Of a stretch of 64,000 bases of DNA, positions 16,340 to 33,618 are shown one piece after another. The position numbers and the translations under genes are program-made. The stretch's first letter is position 1, and every line of letters begins with the position of its first letter. The notes under the pieces were generated by a model. The model saw only the letters and a list, made by a program, of their open reading frames with translations. It did not search any database and was not told the origin of the DNA. The stretch comes from Candidatus Heimdallarchaeum aukensis (GTDB lineage: Archaea; Asgardarchaeota; Heimdallarchaeia; Heimdallarchaeales; Heimdallarchaeaceae). The stretch covers positions 704,001-768,000 of the forward strand of contig CP084166.1 of NCBI GenBank assembly GCA_021513695.1, in the 5' to 3' direction.

Positions 16340-16482
16340 AATTTCAAGATTTAATGTTGAATATTAACTTTTCTGAATATAATTGAAAAAACTGCTTTAA
16401 CTTTAAAAAATGTAAATTTAGCTTTTTTTCGATTAAGAATAAAAAGACTCTTCAAGCTGTAGCGAAAAATTGATATTCTTGT

Positions 16483-16494
16483 TTTTTTAATATG
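16483..16494 (+). promoter_or_regulatory. TATA-like box (tttttaatatg) centred about 27 nt upstream of ATG 16516
   Basis: The A/T box is at the spacing expected for a leaderless archaeal transcript, and there is no SD. Confidence 0.3.
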
Positions 16495-16515
16495 AAATTG
16501 AGTGTTTGATTGTAA

Positions 16516-17694: not shown

Positions 17695-17695
17695 C

Positions 17696-18526
17696 TTAAC
17701 AGAGTGACTCAATCCACTGAATCATATCCTCTATCGCTCCTTTTCCATCCTCAAATATTTCATTATATATCTCATGCTTGCAGTTATCATAAACTATTTT
17801 CTTTTTATTTTCAGAGCCGAAAGAGTTAAACAATTCTTCCTGACCAATCATAGTTGTGTCATCTTTTCCATATTGCATCAAAATTGGAACAGTAATCTGT
17901 TTAAGCTGTTCTTTTACTTTTTTGTAGTGAGTAACGAAATTCTTTCCTAATGCACAAGTAGCTGTTTTATAATTAACTAAAGTGTCATTTATGTATTTCT
18001 CCACATTTTCTTTGTTATAAGATAGACCATTAGGATCAAGCATTGAAGGCAGTCGCAACTTTGGAGCAACAGTACCTAAAAATATCACAATTGGGTTTAA
18101 GATTACAGGATTTGTGCTGTTTCTTGTTCCTGTTCCTGAAAGTATCATTCCTTTGATTTTATCTTGATATTTAATGGCATAGGAATAGGCTATTATACTC
18201 CCCATTGAATGACCTAATATGAATAGGGGTAAATTTTTGTACTCTTTTGTTATTATATCAGTTAATATTTTTTCGTCTTCAACATATTCAAAGAAACTCT
18301 TTGCATGATTCCTTACCCCCTCACTTTTCCCATGCCCCCTATGATCATCCGCGACAACTATAAATCCTCTAGAATTTAGTTTCTTTGCTACATGTTGATA
18401 TCGACCCGAGTGCTCTCCAAAGCCGTGGAAAATTTGAACAATTCCCTTAGGATTTTCAACTTTCCAAATTCTATAAAAGATATTTAGATTATCTTTTGTT
18501 TCAAATGAACTTTCTTTATAATTCAT
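17696..18526 (-). CDS. Alpha/beta hydrolase (lysophospholipase/monoacylglycerol lipase-like)
   Basis: It has HGFGEHSGRY and the nucleophile elbow GHSMGS. Confidence 0.75.
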   Translation of the reverse strand: MNYKESSFETKDNLNIFYRIWKVENPKGIVQIFHGFGEHSGRYQHVAKKLNSRGFIVVADDHRGHGKSEGVRNHAKSFFEYVEDEKILTDIITKEYKNLPLFILGHSMGSIIAYSYAIKYQDKIKGMILSGTGTRNSTNPVILNPIVIFLGTVAPKLRLPSMLDPNGLSYNKENVEKYINDTLVNYKTATCALGKNFVTHYKKVKEQLKQITVPILMQYGKDDTTMIGQEELFNSFGSENKKKIVYDNCKHEIYNEIFEDGKGAIEDMIQWIESLC

Positions 18527-18562
18527 AATGAAAAAAAAGAGGAAGGTAAAAATAAATTTTTT

Positions 18563-19477
18563 TCAAAAAGTATTTTTATTAGATATTTTTAATTTTTCTA
18601 GAATCAGTTTAGCAATGTTTTCGATTGTTTCTTGAATATCTTTAACAGATTTATCTTCTGAATCTATTTCAACAACAGTTTTTTTCTCAATCATCGCTTG
18701 AGTAAAGATGTGGTTATGCGGTATTTTCGCAATAACAGGAAAGTCTTTTTCAAATTTATCTTCAATCTCTTGAGTTATTTCCATGTTTATGTCACTTTTA
18801 TTGACTACTATAAAACCTGGAATATTGAACTGTTTTAAAAGCTCTAGAACTCTTTCTAAATCGTGTTTTCCAGAAATGGTTGGTTCACTAACAACTATAG
18901 CCAGATGGCTTCCAGATAAAGAACTTATAACCGGACAGCCAATACCTGGAGAGCCATCAATTAAAACCAATGATTTATTCTTTTCTTTTGCAACCTGTAA
19001 GGCTTTCTTTCTTACTTCTGCAACCAACAATCCGCTACTTTCTTCTCCAGGAACAAGTCTTGCATGAATCATTTTTCCAATTCTTGTATCAGAAACAAAA
19101 TAATTACCACTAACTCTTTCAATCATAGTTATTGCATCAACAGGACATACATGTTTGCATAATCCGCATCCTTCACAACGTACTATTTCAATATTTAATT
19201 CTTGATCTATTGCTCCATAACGACATGATTCATAACATTTCATACATTTTGTACATTTATCAAAATCTATTACGGCCTTTTTTGTTCCATAATAATCTGT
19301 TTTTTCTGATTTCTCAGGAGAGAATATAAGATACAAGTCAGCAGCGTCTACATCAGCATCTGCAAGAATAGAATAATTTTGAAGTAAGTAGGCTAAAGAA
19401 GAAATTAGTGAAGTTTTTCCAGTTCCACCCTTACCACTTATTACAGTTACTTGTTTTATATCTGTATTATCACTCAT
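18563..19477 (-). CDS. MinD/ParA-superfamily P-loop ATPase with inserted 2x[4Fe-4S] ferredoxin domain
   Basis: It has the deviant Walker A motif ISGKGGTGKTSL, plus CTKCMKCYESCRYGAI and CEGCGLCKHVCPVDAI. Its start overlaps the end of the next gene. Confidence 0.8.
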   Translation of the reverse strand: MSDNTDIKQVTVISGKGGTGKTSLISSLAYLLQNYSILADADVDAADLYLIFSPEKSEKTDYYGTKKAVIDFDKCTKCMKCYESCRYGAIDQELNIEIVRCEGCGLCKHVCPVDAITMIERVSGNYFVSDTRIGKMIHARLVPGEESSGLLVAEVRKKALQVAKEKNKSLVLIDGSPGIGCPVISSLSGSHLAIVVSEPTISGKHDLERVLELLKQFNIPGFIVVNKSDINMEITQEIEDKFEKDFPVIAKIPHNHIFTQAMIEKKTVVEIDSEDKSVKDIQETIENIAKLILEKLKISNKNTF

Positions 19478-20315
19478 TTTTCACTTCCTCCGTAATCTCT
19501 TCTATCATCTGTTGAAATTTCTCTTTCCATTCTGGAAAAGTAGTTAGGAAATTATTACCAACAGAATAGGATTTAGCTATCTTCAGATCAAAAGGAATAC
19601 GTAAAAGAATAGGAATATTATTTTCTTTGCAATAGTTTTCTAATTCTTCATTGCCTATTCCCTCTTTATTTATTATCACTCCAAATTTTTTGTTTAACTG
19701 ATATAAGGTTTCTACTACAACTTTCATGTCAGAAAGACCAAATGGTGTGGGTTCTGCAACGACTATTACATAGTCAACATCTATTACTGTTTCTACCATA
19801 GGACAAGCTGACCCAGGAGGAGAATCAAATATCACATAATCCTTCTTTTTATCTACTTGTTCCTTAAGAGTAGAAATTATAGGTGTTGAGAGTTCTTCTC
19901 CAACTATAAGTTCACCATAGTCAAATCTTCTATTTCCTTTTATTCCTGAAAAGATTTTACCTAAACTCCTATTTTTTTCAGTTATTGCTTCTGTAGGACA
20001 AACAACAGAGCATACTCCACATCCATGACATATTCTATCAAAAACTAATATTTGATTCGGTAAATTAGCTAAAGCATTATATTCACAATTTTTCACACAT
20101 TCACCGCATAAAATGCACTTTGAGCTATCTATAACAGGAATAGGAATTTGTGCGTCTTTTACATGCTGTGTTCTTATATCCAAAAATAGTGAACAATTGG
20201 GTTCATCTACATCTGCATCGATTAATTGTACATTATCCAAGGATAAAAACAAACTTGTGGCAATGGTTGTTTTTCCAGTTCCACCTTTACCTGACACTAC
20301 AGCTATTGAAATCAC
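19470..20315 (-). CDS. MinD/ParA-superfamily P-loop ATPase with inserted 2x[4Fe-4S] ferredoxin domain (paralog)
   Basis: It has VVSGKGGTGKTTIA, plus CILCGECVKNCEYNAL and CHGCGVCSVVCPTEAI. Confidence 0.8.
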   Translation of the reverse strand: MISIAVVSGKGGTGKTTIATSLFLSLDNVQLIDADVDEPNCSLFLDIRTQHVKDAQIPIPVIDSSKCILCGECVKNCEYNALANLPNQILVFDRICHGCGVCSVVCPTEAITEKNRSLGKIFSGIKGNRRFDYGELIVGEELSTPIISTLKEQVDKKKDYVIFDSPPGSACPMVETVIDVDYVIVVAEPTPFGLSDMKVVVETLYQLNKKFGVIINKEGIGNEELENYCKENNIPILLRIPFDLKIAKSYSVGNNFLTTFPEWKEKFQQMIEEITEEVKNE

Positions 20316-20381
20316 TTTCTTTACCTTCCTACATTTGTTTCAAATTAAAAAAAATAAACAAAAACATCTTTAATTGTGTAT

Positions 20382-20756
20382 TTAATGGTCATGATCATGG
20401 TCATGTTCGTGGTGCCCACAACCATCAGTTTTTGAAGCTAGTCTCAGTTTTCCTTCTTTGAAATTGTCAATTACATTCTTTACAGTTCCTTCAGCACCGA
20501 CATATACCCCAAGATTGAGTTCTTCTGCTAGTTGAATAGCTCTTGAACCTATTCCTCCACAGAGAAGAGCATTGCTATGTTTAGCTAAAAATTCAGCAGG
20601 CATCCCTACACCGCCAAAATGATTGCTTTCATTGTTAATTATTTTAAGTTCATTTGTTTCTTCATCCCAAATTGCATATAATGGAGCTCTTCCAAAATGT
20701 GCTGATACAGGGGAATCCCACCCTTTATCGTCTTCTACAGGAATTGCATATCTCAT
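20382..20756 (-). CDS. NifX/NifB-C-terminal-like dinitrogenase FeMo-cofactor-binding-fold protein with a C-terminal His/Asp-rich tail
   Basis: The fold is similar to the adjacent paralog, with GGVG...LLCGGIGSRA. It ends GCGHHEHDHDHDH. Confidence 0.65.
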   Translation of the reverse strand: MRYAIPVEDDKGWDSPVSAHFGRAPLYAIWDEETNELKIINNESNHFGGVGMPAEFLAKHSNALLCGGIGSRAIQLAEELNLGVYVGAEGTVKNVIDNFKEGKLRLASKTDGCGHHEHDHDHDH

Positions 20757-20767
20757 CTTTTTTCCTC

Positions 20768-21097
20768 CTAAACTTTTTTTAGTTCATTTTTTTCTAGTTT
20801 CTCTATCAAATTTTTCCAAGGTTCAACTTGACCTTCATAAATCGTGATATTGGAAGCTCGTAACACTTGTTCTGCATTAGGGCCTACTCTTGGAGCAATA
20901 ACTGCTTTTACCCCTTGAGAAACAAGAAATTCAGAAGCTTTAACTCCTGCTCCTCCTCTTGCCATAGCAGAGGGATTTTCATGATATTCATATTCTTTTG
21001 AATCTGAATCGTATATTAGATAATATAACGCTCTTCCAAATCTACTTGCCATTGAAGCATCTTCAGATCTTTCATCTATTGGTATTCCTATTTTCAT
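20768..21097 (-). CDS. NifX/NifB-C-terminal-like dinitrogenase FeMo-cofactor-binding-fold protein
   Basis: The sequence MKIGIPIDE...SRFGRALYYLIYDSD...GGAGVKASEFLVSQGVKAVIAPRVGPNA matches PF02579-type proteins. Confidence 0.7.
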   Translation of the reverse strand: MKIGIPIDERSEDASMASRFGRALYYLIYDSDSKEYEYHENPSAMARGGAGVKASEFLVSQGVKAVIAPRVGPNAEQVLRASNITIYEGQVEPWKNLIEKLEKNELKKV

Positions 21098-21402
21098 AAA
21101 ATCACTTCTTTATCTTTGTTTAATTCTGGTTCAGAGTCGAATTTTATAGCTTGATTTTCAAATAAAGCAGTAGCTATTTTTTTTCTTGCAATTCTTAAAT
21201 CTCTACTATAACTTGACTGAGATATACCCATCTTTTTTGCTGCTTCAACTTGCTTCAATCCCAAGTAATCAGCATAGTACAACACAGTTATTTCTTCTTT
21301 TGTTAGTATTTGTGTCTCCAGCTCCTTAAATGGTATAGCCACTGGCTTGAACACATGTTCGTTTACATCTATACAACAACGTTTTATCTTCCTCTGAACC
21401 AT
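21094..21402 (-). CDS. DUF134 (UPF0251) predicted DNA-binding protein
   Basis: It has a C-terminal sigma-70 region-4-like HTH (LGLKQVEAAKKMGISQSSYSRDLRIARKKIA). This family typically lies beside NifX-like and MinD-ferredoxin genes. Confidence 0.6.
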   Translation of the reverse strand: MVQRKIKRCCIDVNEHVFKPVAIPFKELETQILTKEEITVLYYADYLGLKQVEAAKKMGISQSSYSRDLRIARKKIATALFENQAIKFDSEPELNKDKEVIL

Positions 21403-21535
21403 ACATCAGAAATTTTTCTAATTGATTATATAAACATTTAGTTATGAATAATTATTCACATATATGGTGATAAACACCTTTATTCTAAGAAGAAAAAGTC
21501 AAAAATTAGGGTTTAAAGCAAAATAGAAAGAAAAA

Positions 21536-21967
21536 TCAGTCAGTTATTTCTATCTCAATAAGGTTATGATTAATAATTGAATGAGCAATCCTTTTTCTAA
21601 GACCTTTAAGATAGCGCCAAACACTTGTTTGAGATATTCCTAATTTCTCGGCTATCTCTTTCTGAGTTAGCTCCTCTACATCAGCCATTTTTAAAATTTC
21701 TAATTCAAAACTGGATATAGCAAGAATATTATGAGGTTGATTTATTCTACGATTAATAGGGATAGAATAAGCTACAGGAGGACGCCCTTTCCTAAAATGT
21801 TTTCTACGTATGCCATGCGGACCATGCATTCCTCCTCTTCTCATTCCTCGCCTAGGTCCTCCGCCCATACCTCTTCTCGGAGGAAAGAGTTGATTATTAA
21901 GATTAGTTTTTTCTTCTTCTTTTCTCGTTTTTTCACCGTTTGATGGTTCGTCATTCATACTGTTCAC
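21536..21967 (-). CDS. DUF134-like HTH protein with an N-terminal Arg/Gly/Pro-rich low-complexity region
   Basis: The N-terminus has PRRGMGGGPRRGMRRGGMHGPHG repeats. The C-terminus has an HTH (LTQKEIAEKLGISQTSVWRYLKGLRKRIA). Confidence 0.55.
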   Translation of the reverse strand: MNSMNDEPSNGEKTRKEEEKTNLNNQLFPPRRGMGGGPRRGMRRGGMHGPHGIRRKHFRKGRPPVAYSIPINRRINQPHNILAISSFELEILKMADVEELTQKEIAEKLGISQTSVWRYLKGLRKRIAHSIINHNLIEIEITD

Positions 21968-22004
21968 TCTTTGAAAAAAGAAAAAAACAAATAAAAAAGT
22001 GTTT

Positions 22005-22355
22005 TTACTTATTCAATTTCTGTTTTTCTTCTTCTAGTAAAGATATTTCTTTTTGAAGATACTCTATTTGCTTTTCGATTAATGAAATCTCATAATCTAT
22101 GGCGTTTTCATTGGATGGTTTTCCATATGGATCCCATTGTGCATTTGTTGGTGGATTTTCTACTCCTTGATATTCAGGCATTGCCCACCAACCCCTTGGT
22201 CTGTCGGGGAAAAAGTCACAATTTGGACTTATCCATCTACGTCCTCCAAAACCTGCACCAAATCCTCTTCTAAATCCAAATCCTCGTCCATAACCGTATC
22301 CTCTTCCATACCCATATCCGGGGCCATATCCATATCTTCTATATCTGTATGCCAT
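22005..22355 (-). CDS. Small protein with a Gly/Tyr/Arg-rich low-complexity N-terminus and a C-terminal coiled coil (DUF5320-like)
   Basis: The N-terminus is MAYRYRRYGYGPGYGYGRGYGYGRGFGFRRGFGAGFGGRR. It is followed by a conserved-looking NCDFFPDRPRGWW and then a heptad coiled coil (EISLIEKQIEYLQKEISLLEEEKQKL). Confidence 0.5.
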   Translation of the reverse strand: MAYRYRRYGYGPGYGYGRGYGYGRGFGFRRGFGAGFGGRRWISPNCDFFPDRPRGWWAMPEYQGVENPPTNAQWDPYGKPSNENAIDYEISLIEKQIEYLQKEISLLEEEKQKLNK

Positions 22356-22408
22356 TTTTTCACCTCAAATGTTTTTGAGTTATTACTCAATATTAGTTAG
22401 ACTTTGCC

Positions 22409-22420
22409 GATATATAAAGT
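22409..22420 (-). promoter_or_regulatory. TATA box (ctttatata on the minus strand) about 55-60 nt upstream of ATG 22355; SD-like tgaggtg lies 4-10 nt before the ATG
   Basis: The motif is consensus-like archaeal TTTATATA. One of the few clear GGTGA-type ribosome-binding sites in the window lies just downstream. Confidence 0.35.
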
Positions 22421-22514
22421 TTATGTTTTGCGTTATAATTCAAAAATTGTTTTCAGTAATTACACAACTACAAATTTAAAAAAGGTTGAATTGGAAATAA
22501 GTCGGTAGATAATA

Positions 22515-23792
22515 ATGGTAGACGTGAAACCTTTTCGAGGGATAAGATATACTGAAAAAGCAGGAGATATAGCAAATTTAATTGCACAGCCATATGATAA
22601 AATTGATGAAGAAATGCAGAAAGAATACTATGAAAAATCAGAATATAATTACTGTAGACTAACATTACCAATGGAAGAAGACAGATATAATGTTGCTAGA
22701 AAAAGATTAGAAGAATGGTTAGCTAATGAAATACTACAAAAAGATGAAGACCCAGCCTTTTATGTTTATTTCCAAGAATTCGAACTTTTCGGAAAAAAAT
22801 TTATTCGTAAAGGCTTTATTGGAGCATTAAGACTACACCCATTTGAAGAAAATATAGTTCTTCCTCATGAGAAGACTCACAAAGGACCAAAAATCGACAG
22901 ATTAAACATGCTAAAAACAACTAAACACACTTTAGAACCTGGATTCATCCTTTATTCTGATAATGATAAAGTAACGATTAGTATTTTTGAAGAGGTTGCC
23001 CAAAAAGAAAAACCAATAATTGATGTAGTCGACAGTTTAGGAGCCAGAAATAGAGTATGGAAACTTACTGATCCCGAAAAAATAAAAAGAGTTCAAGAAA
23101 TTTTCAAAGATCAACAGTTAGTAATTGCAGATGGACATCACCGGTATGAAACAGCTTGTACTTACAGAGACATGAGAAGGGAAGAAAAGAAAGATTGGGA
23201 CGAAAATGATGCTTTTAATTTTAGAATGACTTATTTAGTTCCTGTAGAAGATGAAGGTCTAGTAGTACTTGCTACACATAGATGTCTAGCAAAAGTAAAA
23301 GTTACACCAGAACAAGAAGAGATTTTTAAGAAGTACTTTGAGATAGAGGAAATATCCAAAGAAAAAATACCTGAATTTTTGGAGAAAAACCAAGACAATC
23401 ATGTCTTTGTTTATTATCAAGATGGCAAAGCTAAATCTATGATTATGAAGGATCCTACCACAATCAATGAATTTGTTAAAGATAGAAGTGAAGAATACAA
23501 GAATCTAGATGTCGTAATTCTTCGAGACATGATCTTTCAAGGAATTATGGGACTATCAGATTTAAAGATAGATGATGATATTTTCTACGAGAGATGGTGG
23601 AATGAAGCAATTCAGAAAGTTGATGAAGGAAAATATAAAGTTGTTTTCATTCTCAATCCTACTAGAGCAAAACAAGTTTTAGCTGTTGCCAAAAATCATG
23701 AAAGAATGCCTCAAAAATCTACAGACTTCTATCCAAAAATGATTAGTGGTCTTACAATGATGAGTTTAGAAGATGGAGAAAAATTGAACTAA
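22515..23792 (+). CDS. DUF1015 family protein (intact copy; its C-terminal 2/3 lies inside the duplicated unit)
   Basis: The N-terminus MVDVKPFRGIRYTE is typical of DUF1015, and the product is 425 aa. Confidence 0.7.
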   Translation: MVDVKPFRGIRYTEKAGDIANLIAQPYDKIDEEMQKEYYEKSEYNYCRLTLPMEEDRYNVARKRLEEWLANEILQKDEDPAFYVYFQEFELFGKKFIRKGFIGALRLHPFEENIVLPHEKTHKGPKIDRLNMLKTTKHTLEPGFILYSDNDKVTISIFEEVAQKEKPIIDVVDSLGARNRVWKLTDPEKIKRVQEIFKDQQLVIADGHHRYETACTYRDMRREEKKDWDENDAFNFRMTYLVPVEDEGLVVLATHRCLAKVKVTPEQEEIFKKYFEIEEISKEKIPEFLEKNQDNHVFVYYQDGKAKSMIMKDPTTINEFVKDRSEEYKNLDVVILRDMIFQGIMGLSDLKIDDDIFYERWWNEAIQKVDEGKYKVVFILNPTRAKQVLAVAKNHERMPQKSTDFYPKMISGLTMMSLEDGEKLN

Positions 23793-23795
23793 AGT

Positions 23796-23830
23796 TTTCT
23801 AAACTCTTTTTTCTTCATATTTTTAATCTA
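23796..23830 (+). terminator. T-rich tract after the DUF1015 stop (repeated after the truncated copy at 26256..26290)
   Basis: The sequence ctcttttttcttcatatttttaatc contains T6 and T5 runs, which fit archaeal oligo-T terminators. Confidence 0.25.
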
Positions 23831-24025
23831 CTTTAATTGCATATCTTTTTTCTGCTTCTTTAGAATATAAAGCCAAGAGTTTATCGAAATTCTCTTTTTC
23901 TAGATAACCATGTGCTGTCATCATTTCAGTGAATCTTTTCGGGAATTTTTGATAAGCTTCTTTAAGACTAAAGCCTTCTGCATATTTGAACTGTAATCTT
24001 TTTCTCTGTATTTCTTTTCCTATTT

Positions 24026-25207
24026 TTAGTAGTCTTCATCAGTTCTGTTGATTTTTAAGCTCTCTAAAGCTTGAATTGTTGTATTCATATCGTATACTCC
24101 TCTAGCAAAAAGGCAAATAACCATGCTGTTTAGAACGTTTCTCCACTCTTCTTCATTCATTAGAGAATTCATTCCTTGTTCAAAAGTTATTGGTTTATTC
24201 AGTACTTTTTGGTCCAGTGAATAACCAGCGTTGTCTAGATGACTGTGTCTTCCACCAACGAGAAAACCCATAATAGCATAATATCCAGTTCTATAACCTG
24301 CAGGTTCTAGTTTTGCTACTCTTATACCGAAATCATTTCCGCCATATTTCTCTACAAGAGCTTCTACTCCCTTTGAAGCTGTATAATAAAGTTCGCTTTC
24401 TTCTGTAGCTTTAGATATTTTTCCGATGATAGATAAGAAATCATCCACCCTACCAAATCTAATTAATTCTCCTTCTGTGTCTTTAGGACTAATTAAGTTT
24501 CTTTCATATGCTTCAGCTAACCAAGCCAGAACAACTCCTGTAGATATAGCGTCCATTCCTTCTTTCTCAATAGCTTCAATTAGTTTTAAGATATCTTTGG
24601 CATTACCTATCTTAAGATTTGAACCAAGAGCATAGATGAGTTCGTAATCGTAAGATACAGCAATAGAGTGAATGTCAGCTACAGTTCCTTTTTCCCATCT
24701 TTCTCTTAAGATTGCTAAATGAATACAACCGATTGGACAACCTCCGCAAGCTACTCTTTTGCCTAACAATTCTGAAGCGAAATATTCACCAGAGATATTT
24801 TCAGCTTCTTCAAAGTAGCTTTCTGCAAAGTTCTTAGTAGGTAAGGATTTTAACGCATTTAGAGGTAATATTCCCGCAGCTGTCCCAAGAACATGATATT
24901 TGGCCATTAAATTTGTTTCAGTAGTTTTCTTGTATATTTCTCTAAACACTCTTCTATATTGTTTATAATTAGTATTTGACTCCAAAGAAATGGGTTGATC
25001 TCCGATAATTGCGAAACCTTTAACATTCTTGCTTCCTAAAACTGCGCCTAGACCTGTTCTACCGAAATGCCTTGTTCTGTCTACAGTTGCACAAGCATAA
25101 GGAATTAATCTTTCTCCTGCTGGTCCAATTGTTACCACAGAACGATTACCAGGATGACCTATCTTTTCTCTTATAATTCTACCAGTTGTATTGGGAGACA
25201 TATACAT
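24026..25207 (-). pseudogene. Truncated, frameshifted copy of aldehyde:ferredoxin oxidoreductase (AOR') created by the tandem duplication
   Basis: The 393-aa ORF is identical to residues about 166-550 of the intact AOR. It lacks the N-terminal ~165 aa because the junction abuts DUF1015 sequence at 25261. A 1-nt deletion produces a premature end (...INRTDEDY*) relative to the intact copy (...INRTDEELLKIG...). Confidence 0.65.
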
Positions 25208-25260
25208 TAGAGGTTTAGCATTAACAAATTGAACTCCATCTTCATAAGAAACAAAGTAGA

Positions 25261-26252
25261 TTATTCGTAAAGGCTTTATTGGAGCATTAAGACTACACCC
25301 ATTTGAAGAAAATATAGTTCTTCCTCATGAGAAGACTCACAAAGGACCAAAAATCGACAGATTAAACATGCTAAAAACAACTAAACACACTTTAGAACCT
25401 GGATTCATCCTTTATTCTGATAATGATAAAGTAACGATTAGTATTTTTGAAGAGGTTGCCCAAAAAGAAAAACCAATAATTGATGTAGTCGACAGTTTAG
25501 GAGCCAGAAATAGAGTATGGAAACTTACTCCTCCCGAAAAAATAAAAAGAGTTCAAGAAATTTTCAAAGATCAACAGTTAGTAATTGCAGATGGACATCA
25601 CCGGTATGAAACAGCTTGTACTTACAGAGACATGAGAAGGGAAGAAAAGAAAGATTGGGACGAAAATGATGCTTTTAATTTTAGAATGACTTATTTAGTT
25701 CCTGTAGAAGATGAAGGTCTAGTAGTACTTGCTACACATAGATGTCTAGCAAAAGTAAAAGTTACACCAGAACAAGAAGAGATTTTTAAGAAGTACTTTG
25801 AGATAGAGGAAATATCCAAAGAAAAAATACCTGAATTTTTGGAGAAAAACCAAGACAATCATGTCTTTGTTTATTATCAAGATGGCAAAGCTAAATCTAT
25901 GATTATGAAGGATCCTACCACAATCAATGAATTTGTTAAAGATAGAAGTGAAGAATACAAGAATCTAGATGTCGTAATTCTTCGAGACATGATCTTTCAA
26001 GGAATTATGGGACTATCAGATTTAAAGATAGATGATGATATTTTCTACGAGAGATGGTGGAATGAAGCAATTCAGAAAGTTGATGAAGGAAAATATAAAG
26101 TTGTTTTCATTCTCAATCCTACTAGAGCAAAACAAGTTTTAGCTGTTGCCAAAAATCATGAAAGAATGCCTCAAAAATCTACAGACTTCTATCCAAAAAT
26201 GATTAGTGGTCTTACAATGATGAGTTTAGAAGATGGAGAAAAATTGAACTAA
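25261..26252 (+). pseudogene. 5'-truncated duplicate of the DUF1015 gene (C-terminal ~2/3; first in-frame ATG at 25368)
   Basis: It is identical to 22801..23792 except for D to P (LTDPEK versus LTPPEK). It has no native N-terminus or promoter context. Confidence 0.6.
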
Positions 26253-26282
26253 AGTTTTCTAAACTCTTTTTTCTTCATATTT

Positions 26283-28085
26283 TTAATCTACTTTAATTGC
26301 ATATCTTTTTTCTGCTTCTTTAGAATATAAAGCCAAGAGTTTATCGAAATTCTCTTTTTCTAGATAACCATGTGCTGTCATCATTTCAGTGAATCTTTTC
26401 GGGAATTTTTGATAAGCTTCTTTAAGACTAAAGCCTTCTGCATATTTGAACTGTAATCTTTTTCTCTGTATTTCTTTTCCTATTTTTAGTAGTTCTTCAT
26501 CAGTTCTGTTGATTTTTAAGCTCTCTAAAGCTTGAATTGTTGTATTCATATCGTATACTCCTCTAGCAAAAAGGCAAATAACCATGCTGTTTAGAACGTT
26601 TCTCCACTCTTCTTCATTCATTAGAGAATTCATTCCTTGTTCAAAAGTTATTGGTTTATTCAGTACTTTTTGGTCCAGTGAATAACCAGCGTTGTCTAGA
26701 TGACTGTGTCTTCCACCAACGAGAAAACCCATAATAGCATAATATCCAGTTCTATAACCTGCAGGTTCTAGTTTTGCTACTCTTATACCGAAATCATTTC
26801 CGCCATATTTCTCTACAAGAGCTTCTACTCCCTTTGAAGCTGTATAATAAAGTTCGCTTTCTTCTGTAGCTTTAGATATTTTTCCGATGATAGATAAGAA
26901 ATCATCCACCCTACCAAATCTAATTAATTCTCCTTCTGTGTCTTTAGGACTAATTAAGTTTCTTTCATATGCTTCAGCTAACCAAGCCAGAACAACTCCT
27001 GTAGATATAGCGTCCATTCCTTCTTTCTCAATAGCTTCAATTAGTTTTAAGATATCTTTGGCATTACCTATCTTAAGATTTGAACCAAGAGCATAGATGA
27101 GTTCGTAATCGTAAGATACAGCAATAGAGTGAATGTCAGCTACAGTTCCTTTTTCCCATCTTTCTCTTAAGATTGCTAAATGAATACAACCGATTGGACA
27201 ACCTCCGCAAGCTACTCTTTTGCCTAACAATTCTGAAGCGAAATATTCACCAGAGATATTTTCAGCTTCTTCAAAGTAGCTTTCTGCAAAGTTCTTAGTA
27301 GGTAAGGATTTTAACGCATTTAGAGGTAATATTCCCGCAGCTGTCCCAAGAACATGATATTTGGCCATTAAATTTGTTTCAGTAGTTTTCTTGTATATTT
27401 CTCTAAACACTCTTCTATATTGTTTATAATTAGTATTTGACTCCAAAGAAATGGGTTGATCTCCGATAATTGCGAAACCTTTAACATTCTTGCTTCCTAA
27501 AACTGCGCCTAGACCTGTTCTACCGAAATGCCTTGTTCTGTCTACAGTTGCACAAGCATAAGGAATTAATCTTTCTCCTGCTGGTCCAATTGTTACCACA
27601 GAACGATTACCAGGATGACCTATCTTTTCTCTTATAATTCTACCAGTTGTATTGGGAGACATATACATTAGAGGTTTAGCATTAACAAATTGAACTCCAT
27701 CTTCATAAGAAACAAAGTAGATTGGTTCTGGAGATTTACCCTTTAAAATTATAACTCCTAAGTTATTAAAACGCATTGCTGTTGATAACCTTCCTCCAGC
27801 ATAAGATTCACCTAAATTGCCAGTTAATGGACTCTTAAAAACTGCACAAGTTTTGGAAGCAACGGGAAAATATGTATTTAGAGGTCCAATAGCAAAAATT
27901 ACAACATTTTCTGGAGAAAGAGGATCTACTCCTGTTTGAAGATGTTGATTGAGTAATTCAATACCTACACCTATTCCTCCCATATACTTATCAAAAAGAT
28001 TCTCTGATTCATAAATCTCGAATGAGAGATCACTTAAATTAATTTCTAAAATATTTGGATATAACACTTTCAACTCACCTACCAT
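26283..28085 (-). CDS. aor: Tungsten/molybdenum-pterin aldehyde:ferredoxin oxidoreductase (AOR family), intact copy
   Basis: The product is about 600 aa with the AOR N-terminal domain and CGGCPIGC. The likely start is ATG 28085 (MVGELKVLYPNILEINLSD...), which overlaps the ferredoxin stop as ATGGTAG. The track start at 28157 is probably too far upstream. Confidence 0.85.
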   Translation of the reverse strand: MVGELKVLYPNILEINLSDLSFEIYESENLFDKYMGGIGVGIELLNQHLQTGVDPLSPENVVIFAIGPLNTYFPVASKTCAVFKSPLTGNLGESYAGGRLSTAMRFNNLGVIILKGKSPEPIYFVSYEDGVQFVNAKPLMYMSPNTTGRIIREKIGHPGNRSVVTIGPAGERLIPYACATVDRTRHFGRTGLGAVLGSKNVKGFAIIGDQPISLESNTNYKQYRRVFREIYKKTTETNLMAKYHVLGTAAGILPLNALKSLPTKNFAESYFEEAENISGEYFASELLGKRVACGGCPIGCIHLAILRERWEKGTVADIHSIAVSYDYELIYALGSNLKIGNAKDILKLIEAIEKEGMDAISTGVVLAWLAEAYERNLISPKDTEGELIRFGRVDDFLSIIGKISKATEESELYYTASKGVEALVEKYGGNDFGIRVAKLEPAGYRTGYYAIMGFLVGGRHSHLDNAGYSLDQKVLNKPITFEQGMNSLMNEEEWRNVLNSMVICLFARGVYDMNTTIQALESLKINRTDEELLKIGKEIQRKRLQFKYAEGFSLKEAYQKFPKRFTEMMTAHGYLEKENFDKLLALYSKEAEKRYAIKVD

Positions 28086-28510
28086 TCTCCTGTAGCTTCT
28101 TCCATTACTAAAACACCAGTAGAGCAATATTGAACGCAAGCTCCACACTGACGACATACTATTGCTTTATTGATATCAACATCAATATGTATTGCACCAG
28201 GGATAGGACATGCTTCTATGCATTCTTGATTACACTTACTTGCATCACAAATTTCTCTGTCGACAATAACCCCTCCACCCTGTCTTGGTTTAATCGCTCC
28301 AGGAATAGGACAAGCAGGAGCACAAGGAGGAGATCTACAACCTCTACAGACTACGACAACATAATTGCGTTCTATTCCCCCACTTGCTTTAACTGTAATT
28401 GAACTACGATAATTAGACAATAATTTTTCATTTGTCCTAGAACAAGCATAAACACATTCTAAACAACCAATACATCTATCTAGATTTTTGACTCTTAATC
28501 TTTTGCCCAT
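28079..28510 (-). CDS. Polyferredoxin (four [4Fe-4S]-type Cys motifs), electron-transfer partner of AOR
   Basis: It has CIGCLECVYAC, CRGCRSPPCAPACP, CDASKCNQECIEACP and CRQCGACVQYC. It is translationally coupled to aor. Confidence 0.8.
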   Translation of the reverse strand: MGKRLRVKNLDRCIGCLECVYACSRTNEKLLSNYRSSITVKASGGIERNYVVVVCRGCRSPPCAPACPIPGAIKPRQGGGVIVDREICDASKCNQECIEACPIPGAIHIDVDINKAIVCRQCGACVQYCSTGVLVMEEATGEW

Positions 28511-28674
28511 AAATAAGATATGGATTTAAACCTTAAAAAAGAAATTGGTTCATTTTTTCTATTATTAAGACTTATTTGTAAATAAACGAGGAAAAAAGGC
28601 TTTGATTAAGTATCTAAAATATGCTTGTTAATTACTAAAATCTAAATAAAGTTTAAATTCTTTTACTTATCATT

Positions 28675-28684
28675 GTTTATAATC
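28675..28684 (+). promoter_or_regulatory. TATA-like box (tgtttataat) centred about 30 nt upstream of ATG 28710
   Basis: A TTTATAAT box is present with no SD, which fits a leaderless archaeal promoter. Confidence 0.3.
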
Positions 28685-28709
28685 AGAAAAATCAAGTAGT
28701 TGATTACTA

Positions 28710-30038
28710 ATGCGTAAAGTAAAGATATCAGTAGTCTCATTATTAATAATTATAATTTCAGCAATTCTTTCAACTAACCAATTAGTTATAGTTGGACAAG
28801 TTGAAGAAGGGAAAAATTCTAGAGATTTAATAATTAATTCTTTCAATGCTACTGCTTCTGATAACTTTTTCAATGAAACAAAGGATCCAAGATATCACTT
28901 AATAACTAAACCCTTAACTCTATTATTTTATCCAAACAAAGGTTATCCTATAATTACTGAATATGACAAACAATTTTCTATTAAAGTTTCAGCTCCAGAA
29001 GAGACTACAGGATGGAATCTGAGTTTGATTTCAGAAACAGCTAACGTTTCGCTAGAAATTCTAAATACAAAGTTTGATTCTGAAAAAAAGAGATGGATCA
29101 TTGAAGTAAAACCAGAACAAGAAATTGAAGGATTATTTGATCTAAAACTTGTTTGCAGTGCAGGTAATGATTATCAAACTCATTCTGTAAAACTTGTGGC
29201 AAAATTTAGTTACCCCTTTTCATTTGTTCAAATAAGTGACAGTCACTTTCCAGGTTATGCTCCAGATATTAACAGTACAGCAATTGACCTTGAAGTAATC
29301 CAAAAAATCAAGGAGTTAAATCCTGATTTTGTAATCCACACGGGAGATGTAATTGATGGCCCAAATACGGTTTTTGTTGATCCTAATACAGGAAAATCAA
29401 TAGCAGCAGAAGTGCAACTTAAACTAGCTCTTTGGGCTTTAGATAAACTCGATGTCCCTGTTTTTATAGTTGCAGGAAACCACGATTTTGAAACAAGTAA
29501 TTTGATTCCAGATAACCCAGAGGAAGTGTGGAACAAATATTTTGGATATGGTCGTATTCAAAATTTCAGTTTTCTAGATTGGGATTTCACGGGATATAGT
29601 GTGTCTTTTGAAGGGTTATCCGATTTCTTTTATTCTTCATTGAGAGAGCATCTAGAACAAAACAGTAATGGTTCTGATGTCTTATATTATCATTATGATT
29701 TCAAAGAGCAAGCAACTAATATTCTAAAGAATTATAACATAGAGATAGCTTTATGGGGGCATGAGCACCGCGAAAGGTTTTACTATTCTCAAGGAACATT
29801 ATATCATTGCCAGGATGCAATGTTTAAGAATCAAGATAGCTATACTCTATTTACAATGGAAAGTGAAAACATTTTTACTGTGAAAGAAGAGACCTTCAAC
29901 ACTTCTACTTTTATAAGAGAAGAAACTGAAAGTCCAACTACTAAAACATCATTTCCTACAATATTATCACTGATTTTTCCTTTCTTTGTAACCACAATCT
30001 ATATGCTTAAAAGAAGAAAAATGTCAAGAAAAACATAG
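28710..30038 (+). CDS. Secreted calcineurin-like metallophosphoesterase with a C-terminal Ser/Thr-rich linker, TM anchor and basic tail
   Basis: It has an N-terminal signal/anchor (VSLLIIIISAILS), metallophosphoesterase motifs (QISDSHF, HTGDVIDG, AGNHDFE, WGHEHRE) and the C-terminal SPTTKTSFPTILSLIFPFFVTTIYMLKRRKMSRKT. Confidence 0.7.
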   Translation: MRKVKISVVSLLIIIISAILSTNQLVIVGQVEEGKNSRDLIINSFNATASDNFFNETKDPRYHLITKPLTLLFYPNKGYPIITEYDKQFSIKVSAPEETTGWNLSLISETANVSLEILNTKFDSEKKRWIIEVKPEQEIEGLFDLKLVCSAGNDYQTHSVKLVAKFSYPFSFVQISDSHFPGYAPDINSTAIDLEVIQKIKELNPDFVIHTGDVIDGPNTVFVDPNTGKSIAAEVQLKLALWALDKLDVPVFIVAGNHDFETSNLIPDNPEEVWNKYFGYGRIQNFSFLDWDFTGYSVSFEGLSDFFYSSLREHLEQNSNGSDVLYYHYDFKEQATNILKNYNIEIALWGHEHRERFYYSQGTLYHCQDAMFKNQDSYTLFTMESENIFTVKEETFNTSTFIREETESPTTKTSFPTILSLIFPFFVTTIYMLKRRKMSRKT

Positions 30039-30114
30039 CGAATAAGTAAAATTAACAACAGCCTTTATTTTTTTTTACTAAGATATAAATATATCAAGGA
30101 CTTTTATTATACAA

Positions 30115-30603
30115 ATGAGTATTGACATCGATTTGAGTCCTCTATCACACCCTTCGACTTTAAAGTTATTTTTATTTGCAAAATCTTGCTATCCTGATGA
30201 TTTTGGAGTGAGAGAAGCTAAAAGAAAATTAGAATTTCATAGCATAAGTAATGTCGCTTGGCACCTAAACAAACTTGAAGAAGCTGGATTAATCGAAAAA
30301 TTACCTTCAAACAGATATAAATTGCTAGAAAATAGTTTAAAAATTAAAGAAATTGAAGTCCCTGTAACACTAACAGCACAACTTATAAAAGATGAAATCA
30401 TTACAAAGAAGGTTTTTCTTTTATCTTTTATGATTACAGCAACAATAGCAACAATAATTGTAATTTTCTTCAACCCTTTAGTTGCAGCATTAAATGGGAT
30501 TTTTCTATTAGTTATTAATTGTGTATTTTATTTGGAAGAATATTTTTCAACTAAAAAACAACTTTCTTTTTACAAATGGAAAGAAAAAAAGAAGAATAAT
30601 TAA
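30115..30603 (+). CDS. Hypothetical winged-helix protein with a C-terminal TM anchor
   Basis: It has a wHTH-like region (ISNVAWHLNKLEEAGLIEKLPSNRYKL) followed by a hydrophobic helix (FLLSFMITATIATIIVIFFNPLVAALNGIFLLVI). Confidence 0.4.
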   Translation: MSIDIDLSPLSHPSTLKLFLFAKSCYPDDFGVREAKRKLEFHSISNVAWHLNKLEEAGLIEKLPSNRYKLLENSLKIKEIEVPVTLTAQLIKDEIITKKVFLLSFMITATIATIIVIFFNPLVAALNGIFLLVINCVFYLEEYFSTKKQLSFYKWKEKKKNN

Positions 30604-30698
30604 GAAAAACCTTCTAGAAGAACTGTACTAGGTATTGAACACGAGTGTTCTTGTTCTAGTTTTATAAGTATAGAAAAATAATACTAAATTAGATTAAA

Positions 30699-32972
30699 AT
30701 GAAATTCAGAAATCCGATTTTAACTGGAATTATAATAGCACTAATAATAAGTGCTTTTTCAATAGGAGGGTTTCTTATTATAAGAAATACCTCTCCAGGG
30801 TTGATTGGACCAGGAGAAAATATTCAACAACAAATACCATTAGCTATCAATACTACTTTCGCAACTTATAATTTACAAGGATTGAATTATTCTCCCTCTA
30901 TAGTTCCAACAAAAATTAAGAGTGGGCTTTCAAATGTTGATCTTCAAGGATTAAAGGATGAACTGACATCAGATATAATTAAAGATTTAGAAGAATATGG
31001 TTTTGCTCTAGTGGACAAAGGAATAGAAGATATTTATGAACCTGTGGACTTCGATATGAATATCGAGACCCCTATGTATGTTAGTACTGATCTATGTTTA
31101 CACACTCTTCATTCACTATTCGATAACTACTTGCGTATTCTTGAGTATCAATATTTTAACGAATATTTTACAAGTATGGTAAAGGCATTAAGAGACAAAC
31201 AGATAGTAATATACGATGGTACTTCTGTCGAACAGTCTCTTAAGCCTATCTTAGAAAAGAATATTGCATATTTATCTGTAATCCTTAAGCTGTTGGATAA
31301 TGAAACATCTATACCAGATTATGTAGAAGATATAGTTAATGCAGAGTTAGAAAATATTAACTTAGGAATACCTGCTTACTCTTCTATTTTTGGCTATTTA
31401 GAAGACTTTTCGCAATACAAACCTAGAGGACATTATACCAGAAATGAAAAATTAGCAAGTTATTTCCAAGGAATGATGTATGCAGGAAGAATGAAATTCC
31501 TTTTAGATGACAAGACAGAAGAAAACACTTTAGGAATTGAGCAAACGAAGATGGCTTTATTATTGGTTTACACTCTTTCTGCAGAGTTAGACAATCAAGT
31601 TATATGGGATTACTGGGATAAAATTGTTAGAACAACTAGTTTTCTTGTAGGAATAAGCGATGATCTTACACCAAAGGAATATTATGAAGTGTGGTTAAAC
31701 CAGACAGATGGAAATATTGAACTATCTGCACTAACAGACGAAGATTTTGTAAAAGAGATTATAGTAGAATTGCAAAAACTACGTGCACCAAAGATAAATT
31801 CAAGGATCACAGCAGCTTTTGAAGGCGAAGAAAGCTCTGAAAAAGGAATGAGTTTGTTTGGACAAAGCTATACCCCTGACGCATATATTTTCCAAGAACT
31901 AGTATATGATAATTTACCTAATCGAATGTTTCCAAAAGGTTTAGATATTTTCTCTGTGTTTGGAAGTGAAAGAGCAGAATACCATCTAGAAGCAGAAAAG
32001 GAATATGAAGGATACGAAGAAAAAATAATTAAACTACGCAATGAATTCGGTAATTTATCTTTTAGCGACTGGACACAGAATTTTTACTGGCAATGGCTTT
32101 TTTCCTTACTTCCTTTACTTGAAGAGAAAGGAGAGGGATATCCGGGCTACATGCAAAGTGATGCTTGGACAGATAAATCATTAATGACAGCTTTAGCTTC
32201 ATGGGCAGAATTAAAACACGATACCATACTTTATGCGAAACAGGCCTATGCAGCAAAAGTTTCATTACCTGAAGGAGTATACAATTACGTTGAACCTTAT
32301 CCTGAGATATATTCAAGGATTGCAGCAACTATATCTATGCTGAAAGAAGGATTAGAAAAAAGAGGTTTGTTATACTCTGACGAATACAACGACTTTGAAA
32401 CAAAATTCGATGAATTAATCACTATTATGAATAACTTAACAGCTATCAGTATAAAAGAACTTGAAAATCAGCAAATTACAGAATATGAACAATACTTTAT
32501 ACAAAGAACAGGAAAAAGTTTACTGTACATCTCAGTTATTAATGGAAAAACAGGCGATGAACTTACTACAGAAACTGATAAACGCACTGCAATTATTGCA
32601 GATGTTTTTACAGAACCAAATAGCGGACAAGTTCTAGAAGTTGGAATAGGTAACCCATACTTAATTTATGTTGTTGTTCAAGATCACAGAGGAAAACTAT
32701 ACCTTACCAGAGGAGTAACCTTTTCTTACTATGAGTTCAAACAACCTATGTCTAACAGATTAACAGACGAGGAATGGCAAGAAATGTTAGAAACTTCTCC
32801 TCCAGATTTGCCTGAATGGATAAAAGAAAATTTGCCTATTGTTCAAATCGAAGACAATGAAGTGCAAGTTAAACAATTGGTCCTACAAGCATCAGATAAT
32901 CAAATAAAGATAAAAAAAGTTAGAAATCAAGGAGATAATTATTGGAATTATGCTATAAAAAGGCACGACTGA
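30699..32972 (+). CDS. Large N-terminally anchored extracytoplasmic protein (tentatively DUF3160-like)
   Basis: The 757-aa product has an N-terminal TM or signal (ILTGIIIALIISAFSIGGFLII) and a conserved-looking YKPRGHYTRNEKLASYFQGMMYAGR block. The family assignment comes from memory only. Confidence 0.45.
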   Translation: MKFRNPILTGIIIALIISAFSIGGFLIIRNTSPGLIGPGENIQQQIPLAINTTFATYNLQGLNYSPSIVPTKIKSGLSNVDLQGLKDELTSDIIKDLEEYGFALVDKGIEDIYEPVDFDMNIETPMYVSTDLCLHTLHSLFDNYLRILEYQYFNEYFTSMVKALRDKQIVIYDGTSVEQSLKPILEKNIAYLSVILKLLDNETSIPDYVEDIVNAELENINLGIPAYSSIFGYLEDFSQYKPRGHYTRNEKLASYFQGMMYAGRMKFLLDDKTEENTLGIEQTKMALLLVYTLSAELDNQVIWDYWDKIVRTTSFLVGISDDLTPKEYYEVWLNQTDGNIELSALTDEDFVKEIIVELQKLRAPKINSRITAAFEGEESSEKGMSLFGQSYTPDAYIFQELVYDNLPNRMFPKGLDIFSVFGSERAEYHLEAEKEYEGYEEKIIKLRNEFGNLSFSDWTQNFYWQWLFSLLPLLEEKGEGYPGYMQSDAWTDKSLMTALASWAELKHDTILYAKQAYAAKVSLPEGVYNYVEPYPEIYSRIAATISMLKEGLEKRGLLYSDEYNDFETKFDELITIMNNLTAISIKELENQQITEYEQYFIQRTGKSLLYISVINGKTGDELTTETDKRTAIIADVFTEPNSGQVLEVGIGNPYLIYVVVQDHRGKLYLTRGVTFSYYEFKQPMSNRLTDEEWQEMLETSPPDLPEWIKENLPIVQIEDNEVQVKQLVLQASDNQIKIKKVRNQGDNYWNYAIKRHD

Positions 32973-33471
32973 AATCACCCAAGGGGTCAGTGATTCCTTC
33001 AGATTTTCTAACTACAATAACCATTTTTTTTATCCCCATTTCCTCGACTTTTTGAATTTTATCTTTTATATCATCTAAAAAGCCTATAAATTGATTGTTC
33101 AGAATTTCCTCTTTAGTTTTTCTTTTTTCTTCAGGAACTCTCTTATTGATTTTTTCTATTAATTTATCCAATGATTCTTGACTATTTACCAAAGTGATTG
33201 TGTTGAATAATGATACCTCAAATTCTTTTGGGTCTCTGTCGTAATGCTCTAATCTCTCATTTATGTACTGGACTTTTTCTTCTAGCTCTGTAAGAAGAAT
33301 ATAAGGGAGATTTAGTCCATCTGCTTCTCTACAAGCAATATTAATCATTCTTTTTCCAGAAGAACCGAGAACGATTTGAGGATAAGGTTTCTGAATAGGT
33401 TTAGGAAAATTTCTATTACGCTCAAGTTTCCAGAATTTACCGCTAAAATCAGTAACATCTTCAGTAAACAA
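32953..33471 (-). pseudogene. C-terminal fragment of a luciferase-like (LLM/F420-dependent-type) flavin oxidoreductase; the N-terminal half is absent
   Basis: The sequence FTEDVTDFSGKFWKLERNRNFPKPIQKPYPQIVLGSSGKRMINIACREADGLN resembles the C-terminal subdomain of the LLM family. Only about 150 nt lie upstream before the next gene, and there is no ORF that could encode the N-terminal TIM-barrel half. Confidence 0.45.
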
Positions 33472-33618
33472 TTTTTTATAAATTGTGAGTGATTCTTCTA
33501 ACTGATCGACTCTCTCTTTTGGTGAAGGAAAAACATTTAAATAATTTCGTTTACTTAGTTACTATATGAAAATAAAAAAAAACATATAAAAGAACTAACA
33601 ATATTATTTAGTTTATTT

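Follow-up and report, generated by a model that had tools for sequence, protein, structure and literature searches.

The window analysed here, a 64,000-nt stretch whose first letter is position 1 in all coordinates below, contains what we judge, with a probability of roughly 0.83, to be a genuine and evolutionarily young tandem duplication, 2,460 bp long, formed by illegitimate joining and nearly neutral, on the chromosome of the Heimdallarchaeum population that was sequenced. That population is most likely Ca. H. aukensis PM71, obtained from an enrichment on ethane and sulfate. The first-pass annotation had claimed a two-unit tandem duplication of 2.46 kb, and this was borne out: 22801-25260 is repeated head to tail at 25261-27721, with no spacer and at 99.9% identity. 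It is the sole long near-identical repeat within the window, and a 2.46-kb repeat of this identity cannot have arisen by chance. The TT at 25261-62 is the same as that at 22801-02 and at 27722-23, so that identity extends to 25262 and 27723. The features discussed below are as follows (L001, L032 and L033 are contigs described further on).

22515..23792, plus strand: intact DUF1015 gene, 425 aa (PF06245, E=1.6e-85), spanning the left boundary and carrying the ancestral GAT (Asp186)
22801..25260, no strand: duplication unit 1, 2460 nt
23823..25260, minus strand: AOR', a pseudogene fragment of an aldehyde:ferredoxin oxidoreductase (AOR) gene, recognised by Pfam (AFOR_N, partial, and AFOR_C), tblastn segments and translation
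24033..24033, no strand: derived 1-nt deletion, T against TT at 26493-94 and TT in L001 (three-way alignment)
25261..27721, no strand: duplication unit 2, 2461 nt, with identity through the common TT to 27723
25261..25262, no strand: junction, a 2-nt TT common to unit end and unit start, zero inserted bases
25261..26252, plus strand: DUF1015' fragment from codon 96 (PF06245 profile positions 135-324), with the derived CCT (Pro) at 25530-32
25530..25531, no strand: derived CC, where unit 1, L001 and the Logan contigs L032 and L033 have GA
26283..28157, minus strand: intact AOR family gene, a 624-aa ORF (called as 600 aa in L001) with AFOR_N and AFOR_C, spanning the right boundary
28079..28510, minus strand: gene for a 4Fe-4S ferredoxin-like protein, which shares an operon with AOR, lies upstream of it and is outside the duplication

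In the repeated unit, codons 96-425 of DUF1015 meet codons 145-624 of AOR tail to tail, and it holds zero complete genes. Pfam hits and translation uphold the order proposed earlier, namely a full DUF1015, an N-truncated and frameshifted AOR', an N-truncated DUF1015' and a full AOR. The intact DUF1015 protein is identical to that encoded by the single-copy contig L001; for the AOR protein, NCBIfam matches were all below cut-off. The two inner copies lie head to head and are both 5'-truncated and promoterless. AOR' lacks codons 1-144 and, through the deletion at 24033, runs into a premature stop (it reads ...TDE-DY-stop) that costs it the last 69 aa, its remaining open ORF being 24026-25207 (393 aa). 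DUF1015' has no start codon of its own, and its first ATG-ORF is 25368-26252 (294 aa). Exact-match look-ups of the full AOR (as 624 and as 600 aa) and of both inner ORFs found none of them on record. Since the inner copies are promoterless 3' fragments and no complete gene with its promoter lies inside the repeated unit, the dosage role that had been suggested for DUF1015 and AOR is unsupported.

The 2-nt microhomology reported at the junction is present, as TT at 25261-62. It had been taken as a pointer to slippage or NHEJ-like joining; we give it no mechanistic weight, because a match of at least 2 nt has a probability of ~0.20 by chance at the local base composition. Within +/-40 nt of the breakpoints no in-register homology longer than TT was found, and the longest match in any register around both breakpoints, 6 nt, is out of register with the junction. 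The boundaries have only the TT in common; RecA/RadA-type unequal crossing-over would call for a direct repeat of at least tens of bp. MMEJ and MMBIR are recognised by above-chance microhomology (typically at least 5 bp for MMEJ) or by templated insertions, and this junction shows 2 nt and no inserted bases. As to mobile elements, the called genes from ~8 kb upstream to ~6 kb downstream returned no transposase or integrase domains by Pfam, in line with the earlier claim that neither an IS nor an integrase lies nearby, and there are no inverted repeats at the unit ends of the kind expected for an IS- or transposon-mediated duplication. The duplication would instead have formed without the help of homology, through an illegitimate join between the base that follows AOR codon 145 and codon 96 of DUF1015, likely by a replication template switch or by end-joining between sister chromosomes. 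The breakpoints lie inside two convergent genes, with full-length DUF1015 and AOR surviving on the outside and the two head-to-head 3' fragments, AOR' and DUF1015', left inside. With the full genes kept outside and only fragments inside, no gene would have been lost and no dosage gained, so the event was probably nearly neutral.

Relatives show what preceded the duplication. The closest, a metagenome contig (JGI Ga0366834_1023254, L001; ~97-99% nucleotide identity), is colinear with the window and has one copy, as does Ca. H. endolithica PR6 (L002; ~85-86% nucleotide identity), the latter recovered at 91% amino acid identity in a scan of genome contigs. One copy is likewise present at each of 27 other loci with a DUF1015 homolog. 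Judged from these sequences, a single copy is shown to be the ancestral arrangement. All 14 of the 14 SNPs that distinguish the window from L001 are common to both units, which makes the duplication younger than the split from L001. The exact junction 30-mer had 0 matches in 241 M metagenome records, and no independent assembly with the duplication was found there. Among DUF1015 relatives in metagenome contigs only one further contig belongs to the same species (L026), and it ends at 22925, before any informative site. We considered whether this end was a graph break at K=127; it lies 125 nt past the left boundary, against 127 expected, and we take it as a coincidence.

The first-pass annotation had left open whether the duplication is a recent structural variant or an assembly artefact. 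Indirect support for the former came from Logan, which assembles each SRA run separately with k=31, discarding k-mers that occur once and retaining a single instance of every 31-mer (PMC12424806). The Logan assemblies of two runs, SRR15988954 and SRR15988958, contain contigs that match the window at 100% identity or close to it; it is this 100% identity that links SRR15988954/58/59 to its source genome, a literature search having found no paper that names the runs. Contigs of both runs end or start exactly k-1 nt across both boundaries. In SRR15988954, a 30.7-kb contig (L034, 100% identical across the 8.8 kb compared) has its end at 22830, the boundary + 29; another (L029, 100% identical over 5.8 kb) starts at 27694, the boundary - 29; and a third, of 2463 nt (L032), equals 25261-27723 except for GA at 25530-31. 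Of the SRR15988958 contigs, L035 has its end at 22830 and L033 its start at 22801. These contig ends, and our partial-protein queries, were predicted from the boundaries before look-up, save the first (27694), which was noticed during the search. In the read graph, the unit start has two predecessors and the unit end two successors, and this is the signature of a repeat, not the one that a deletion polymorphism leaves. A real junction predicts such a pair of neighbours on each side of the unit in the reads, and a scaffolding artefact does not. We infer that the extra edges are the tandem junction itself; the expected 58-nt junction contig is too short for Logan, whose cut-off is 150 bp, and has no called gene. 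The contigs of SRR15988954 are error-free and those of SRR15988958 show homopolymer-length errors, which suggests that the former run is Illumina and the latter Nanopore, and the two data types appear concordant on the boundary breaks. The copy number is probably exactly 2; both it and the tandem order rest on the deposited assembly together with the graph topology.

The two units differ at exactly two places. GA at 23070-71 corresponds to CC at 25530-31, a GAT to CCT change in DUF1015 codon 186 (D to P) that the alignment confirms as first described, and a single T at 24033 in unit 1 corresponds to TT at 26493-94 in unit 2. This 1-nt indel had been noted too and does separate the copies as assembled; its placement at 24037/26498 was ~4 nt off, and the short T run in which it was said to sit is merely 2 nt long. 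In a three-way alignment with L001 as outgroup both differences are derived, GA and the additional T being ancestral. DUF1015 position 186 is D, E, N or Q in 21 homologs and never P. Partial proteins with the derived alleles (the P variant and the delta-T variant) had no match among read-level contigs, a result uninformative on an allele at 50%, because bubble-popping during graph simplification, as in Minia3, is expected to drop the alternative allele. The 24033 deletion lies ~1.2 kb from either unique flank and would therefore be unassignable to a copy by short read pairs. We take both differences, provisionally, as real and as assigned to the right copies.

A neutral direct repeat of 2.46 kb should be lost fast by homologous recombination, and it is somewhat surprising that it has two fixed differences between its copies, which are hard to square with such loss unless they were borne by the event itself, are errors or are strain variants. 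A single error-prone replicative repair event of MMBIR-like type (template switch plus mutagenic synthesis) could have made the duplication and both nearby changes at once, and would explain two differences in a supposedly unstable, neutral repeat; if true, this would be a first naturally occurring trace of the pathway from an Asgard archaeon. We consider such an origin improbable. Relative to the junction, the tandem-base substitution lies at +270 nt and the 1-nt deletion at -1228 nt, and two events cannot establish mutational clustering.

An assembly artefact, in which a unit that is single-copy in the DNA was laid down twice in a hybrid assembly, also seems unlikely to us. The Ca. H. aukensis PM71 assembly was made from metaSPAdes Illumina contigs, scaffolded in two LRScaf rounds with Nanopore reads from MDA-amplified libraries and then corrected with Pilon (PMC8813620), so that, if the window is PM71, the "long-read assembly" of the first-pass annotation is better described as Illumina contigs scaffolded with Nanopore. 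This pipeline offers two routes to a false repeat: LRScaf could concatenate two metaSPAdes contigs that each carry the unit, or the scaffolding could follow a chimeric MDA-derived Nanopore read. LRScaf "merges" contigs at a negative estimated gap, with no overlap check described (PMC6902338). In favour of an artefact it may also be said that both differences fall in those halves of the units that face the junction, and that neither was seen in the read-level contigs. However, with a single-copy unit and no additional junction, a read-only assembly would pass from flank to flank through the unit as one unbranched k=31 path, whereas the actual paths break at 22801/22830 and 27694/27723, in two runs. 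These read-graph breaks disfavour the overlapping-contig and MDA-chimera hypotheses alike. A copy filled from a raw Nanopore read would carry several percent errors, and there are merely 2 differences in 2461 nt; Pilon and SPAdes, moreover, write only bases supported by reads. The apparently Illumina run was not MDA-amplified (PMC8813620). The primers used for H. aukensis joins in the same study are absent from the window.

Very improbable, in our view, is a repeat that exists in two contexts with no chromosomal tandem, either as one copy plus a 2.46-kb excision circle or as one copy plus another that sits elsewhere or belongs to a co-resident strain, from which the assembler made a tandem. 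A circle plus a single copy would give a k-mer graph identical to that of a tandem, and our observation is of graph topology, not of spanning reads. Against this, the unit consists of two gene 3' halves, encodes nothing for replication or mobility and lacks terminal repeats; a circle unable to replicate should be rare, and graph simplification usually prunes rare edges; and a copy elsewhere would not give a clean end-to-start join in a polished assembly. Least probable of all is an adaptive amplification, selected for dosage or expression of DUF1015 and/or AOR or for a useful truncated protein: the repeat has apparently persisted long enough to gain two differences, and both derived changes fall in fragments, the full-length genes having stayed ancestral at these sites, but that placement has a 1-in-4 chance expectation with an indel that short reads would not phase, the repeat copies neither a complete gene nor a promoter, AOR' has a frameshift, the Pro of DUF1015' stands at a site where the 21 homologs never have it, and the closest strain and the sister species do without the duplication.

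The genuine tandem duplication that we favour is of small biological weight, being one apparently neutral structural variant with two gene fragments left behind. It does bear on annotation: 23823-25260 and 25261-26252 should be treated as pseudogene fragments and not as extra AOR and DUF1015 paralogs, which affects the gene counts of an Asgard reference genome used in eukaryogenesis comparisons. On the technical side, the end-points of per-run k=31 (Logan) contigs can replace read mapping in telling a real duplication from an artefact. Elsewhere in the neighbourhood, H. endolithica has older tandem DUF3160 paralogs, and a truncated monooxygenase gene lies at 33531 in the window; taken with the duplication, these suggest that the neighbourhood is structurally fluid. 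A frameshift had also been suspected at 33573-33581. The A9 run there is found as well in a divergent second version of the region in the reads, and it is not obviously a sequencing frameshift; an exact look-up of the 550-aa ORF at 33619 gave no match.

Three known kinds of event invite comparison. FoSTeS/MMBIR template switches in eukaryotes and bacteria resemble the present case in a blunt or very short-microhomology junction with (putative) point changes near it, and differ from it in that the junction here is not complex and lacks templated insertions. False duplications in hybrid or scaffolded assemblies share its near-identical adjacent copies, its few differences close to the join and its combination of short-read contigs with noisy MDA long reads. 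In contrast to them, the per-run read graphs here already hold the repeat boundaries, of which a post-assembly artefact would leave none. The closest likeness is to homology-independent tandem duplications of bacteria, described as having "no HR signature" and 0-4 bp of microhomology (bioRxiv 10.64898/2026.05.22.727201). With these it shares direct copies arranged head to tail, flanks free of IS, rRNA and long repeats, a 2-nt junction microhomology, a single copy in close relatives, and junction-specific sequence in read data, in our case deduced from contig ends. Unlike them it comes from an uncultured Asgard archaeon, is small (2.46 kb) and includes gene fragments only, for which reason it has no dosage phenotype. 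The duplication is an ordinary one and belongs to an already known class of event.

Alignment of the copies showed that the 2460 nt at window 22801-25260 (unit 1) recur head-to-tail as 2461 nt at 25261-27721 (unit 2), the sole long near-identical repeat within the 64-kb window. As the first-pass annotation had described, the adjacent units are nearly identical (99.9%), with exactly two differing sites; its 1-nt indel exists but lies ~4 nt from the position given, and the T "run" said to hold it is just two bases.

Sites that differ between the units
23070-71 (unit 1) versus 25530-31 (unit 2): GA versus CC, DUF1015 codon 186, Asp to Pro
24033 (unit 1) versus 26493-94 (unit 2): T versus TT, 1-nt indel

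The TT at 25261-62 equals those at 22801-02 and 27722-23, giving a junction microhomology of 2 nt, and the copy alignment shows no inserted bases at the junction. Pfam upheld the gene order proposed earlier, in which fragments of AOR (aldehyde:ferredoxin oxidoreductase) and DUF1015 lie between the full-length genes.

Genes at the duplication
22515-23792, plus strand, full-length DUF1015 gene
24026-25207 (homology 23823-25260), minus strand, ORF of the AOR fragment
25368-26252 (homology from 25261), plus strand, ORF of the DUF1015 fragment
26283-28157, minus strand, full-length AOR gene
28079-28510, minus strand, 4Fe-4S ferredoxin-like gene

The left breakpoint falls in DUF1015 codon 96 and the right one in codon 145 of the 624-aa AOR ORF. 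Since both lie inside convergent genes, the outer DUF1015 and AOR copies remain intact; the inner copies are 3' fragments, head-to-head and without promoters. Translation confirmed the frameshift claimed for the AOR fragment, which after the 1-nt deletion reaches a premature stop (...TDE-DY-stop), so that the final 69 residues are missing.

The DUF1015 protein is identical to one encoded on L001, an 18.4-kb JGI metagenome contig (Ga0366834_1023254) that is colinear with the window at ~97-99% identity, carries one unit copy and has a single AOR gene directly after DUF1015. In a scan with a single genome for each species, the closest one, Ca. Heimdallarchaeum endolithica PR6, is also single-copy (91% protein and 85-86% nucleotide identity to the window; the two circularised Heimdallarchaeum species share an ANI of 88%, PMC8813620), and 27 of 27 other DUF1015-homolog loci have one copy. 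Judged by these identities, the window most likely comes from Ca. H. aukensis PM71 or another strain of that species. DUF1015-AOR adjacency was found only in L001 and H. endolithica, the two close relatives whose locus reaches past DUF1015. With L001 as outgroup, GA and the additional T are ancestral, and CC and the deletion derived; both derived changes sit in the truncated inner copies. Across 21 DUF1015 homologs residue 186 is D (or E/N/Q), and P in none. The remaining differences from L001 are all common to both units (14/14), so the duplication is younger than the split from this ~98%-identical strain.

The H. aukensis assembly was built from Illumina reads with metaSPAdes, scaffolded twice by LRScaf with MDA-amplified Nanopore reads and polished with Pilon (PMC8813620). 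If scaffolding alone had produced the duplication, this would agree with the use of such amplified reads, with the way LRScaf "merges" contigs at a negative estimated gap (PMC6902338), and with the junction 30-mer having 0 matches in 241 M metagenome records. Such an artefact would also leave one unbranched path in the reads. According to the Logan description (PMC12424806), every SRA run is assembled alone at k=31, with singleton k-mers dropped, Minia3 simplification, and each 31-mer kept once per run. If the junction is in the reads, the unit's first 30-mer has two predecessors and its last 30-mer two successors, so contigs should break at the unit ends with a 30-nt overlap; the junction contig itself would be 58 nt, under the reporting limit of 150 bp.

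The Logan contigs do break at the boundaries. In run SRR15988954, contig L029, reached via the downstream phosphoesterase gene, equals window 27694-33531 at 100% identity and starts exactly 30 nt ahead of the right boundary. From this start we predicted a unit-sized contig whose partial DUF1015 product begins at codon 97, and an upstream contig that would stop at 22830 and encode a partial DUF1015 of 105 residues. Searches then recovered the two contigs: L032 (2463 nt) equals window 25261-27723 save for GA, and L034, of 30.7 kb, runs to 22830 and is 100% identical across the 8.8 kb compared. A second run, SRR15988958, has matching contig ends, with L033 beginning at position 22801 and L035 stopping at 22830. 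Because the only departures of L035 from the window are errors in homopolymer length and a single mismatch at its end, this is probably a Nanopore run; SRR15988954, error-free, is probably the Illumina library, which was not MDA-amplified (PMC8813620).

This topology is that of a repeat, with two contexts at the unit start and at the unit end. Given this, and since no unbranched read path was found, we judge the junction to be real in the DNA and the duplication to be chromosomal and tandem (probability about 0.83). Of the two options offered at first, the recent structural variant is thus favoured by the breaks at both boundaries, and an origin in scaffolding alone is very unlikely. Even less probable is that the unit's second context was mis-resolved, or that a circle accompanies a single chromosomal copy. 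A deletion polymorphism was rejected, as its breaks would fall 30 nt to the opposite side.

The read-level unit contig, L032, carries the ancestral allele at both sites, and exact look-ups of Logan products gave no match to the partial proteins with CC or the deletion, although a 50% allele could be hidden. Bubble-popping during graph simplification, expected of Minia3, would hide such an allele, so the missing derived alleles are no evidence of absence. At 99.9% identity, the copies are too alike for either to have been filled in from unpolished Nanopore sequence. Since SPAdes and Pilon output read-supported bases only, the sample probably contains reads carrying CC and reads carrying the deletion. 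With 270 nt between it and the junction, the CC site is phaseable by read pairs; no unique anchor lies closer than ~1.2 kb to the indel, which may therefore have been placed in unit 1 arbitrarily. The chance of both derived changes landing in pseudo-copies is 1/4, and selection on the intact genes would predict this outcome just as well as any junction-near process.

Upstream of the duplication, a conserved gene cluster at window 18563-21402, which L001 and the Logan contigs also carry, encodes two CbiA/ParA-type ATPases with 4Fe-4S domains, two Nitro_FeMo-Co (dinitrogenase cofactor-binding-like) small proteins and two DUF134 regulators. Two small low-complexity minus-strand genes (ORFs 21536-21967 and 22005-22355) show indels against L001: the window's extra 93-95 nt (~21831-21925) fall in a DUF134/HTH gene that has an R/G/P-rich stretch, and its extra 65-70 nt (~22340-22410) in the 5' end of a short ORF with an 18/36-nt tandem repeat. 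As L034, from the probable Illumina run, matches the window at 100% across both, these are either genuine differences between strains or collapses in the L001 assembly. The environmental contig L026 (JGI Ga0190359_1053389; 98% identity to 21333-22925) ends 125 nt past the left duplication boundary, where a K=127 graph break would give 127; this is probably a coincidence from low coverage.

Downstream, where the window has a single DUF3160 gene (30699-32972, 757 aa), H. endolithica carries a tandem pair of paralogs (15717-17942 and 18208-20397 of its locus, L002; 82% and 79% identity to the window's gene). This reflects either an older tandem duplication or a loss in the lineage of the window, and lies within a few kb of the young duplication. 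The window's copy of a luciferase-like monooxygenase (Bac_luciferase) gene (region 32953-33640) breaks off at 33531, leaving only the C-terminal ~190 codons in frame (172-aa ORF) and then AT-rich non-coding sequence; the gene is intact (310 aa) in L029 (5260-6591) and H. endolithica (L002 20321-21275). L029 is 100% identical to the window up to 33531 and beyond it has just 83% identity to window 33523-33826; the break stems either from a ~450-nt deletion together with strain heterogeneity or recombination, or from a mis-join of the deposited sequence during assembly. The sequencing frameshift suspected at 33573-33581 is not clearly indicated, since the A9 run there (33573-81) is also A9 in the divergent L029 version (window 33566-33640; L029 6330-6420), whose gene begins at a downstream ATG (MFFSLFLSSSL...) that the window lacks; the window's 550-aa ORF starts at TTG 33619. 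Elsewhere, a 636-aa minus-strand ORF (46575-48485) contains long 9-, 12- and 72-nt periodic repeats, (TCTTCTTTC)n at 46729-47285; its product would be a repeat protein rich in E/K and highly charged.

Neither the neighbouring genes nor a repeat search of the 64-kb window revealed an IS, integrase or extended repeat next to the unit, and the earlier remark that no IS or integrase lies nearby agrees with the gene content. Only a short A/T palindrome (22794-22805) straddles the left breakpoint, and comparison of the two breakpoints found no shared homology beyond TT. This 2-nt microhomology, which had been said to fit replication slippage or NHEJ-like duplication, is present but fails as a mechanistic pointer: a match of at least 2 bases is expected at 20% of random junctions at the local base composition, so the junction is effectively blunt. 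There is only a slim chance that one mutagenic template-switch event (MMBIR-like) gave rise to the junction together with both nearby changes. The suggested dosage role for the DUF1015/AOR region is unsupported, since no complete gene lies in the unit and the inner copies are promoterless. The duplication is best seen as a young, nearly neutral variant. A 2.46-kb direct repeat is expected to collapse readily by homologous recombination, which fits its absence from the closest strain. Among bacterial tandem duplications, the class with "no HR signature, 0-4 bp" is put down to template switching or to end joining of the Ku type (bioRxiv 10.64898/2026.05.22.727201). The Heimdallarchaeum junction fits this class, either route could have joined it, and the duplication is a fresh case of a well-known type of event.
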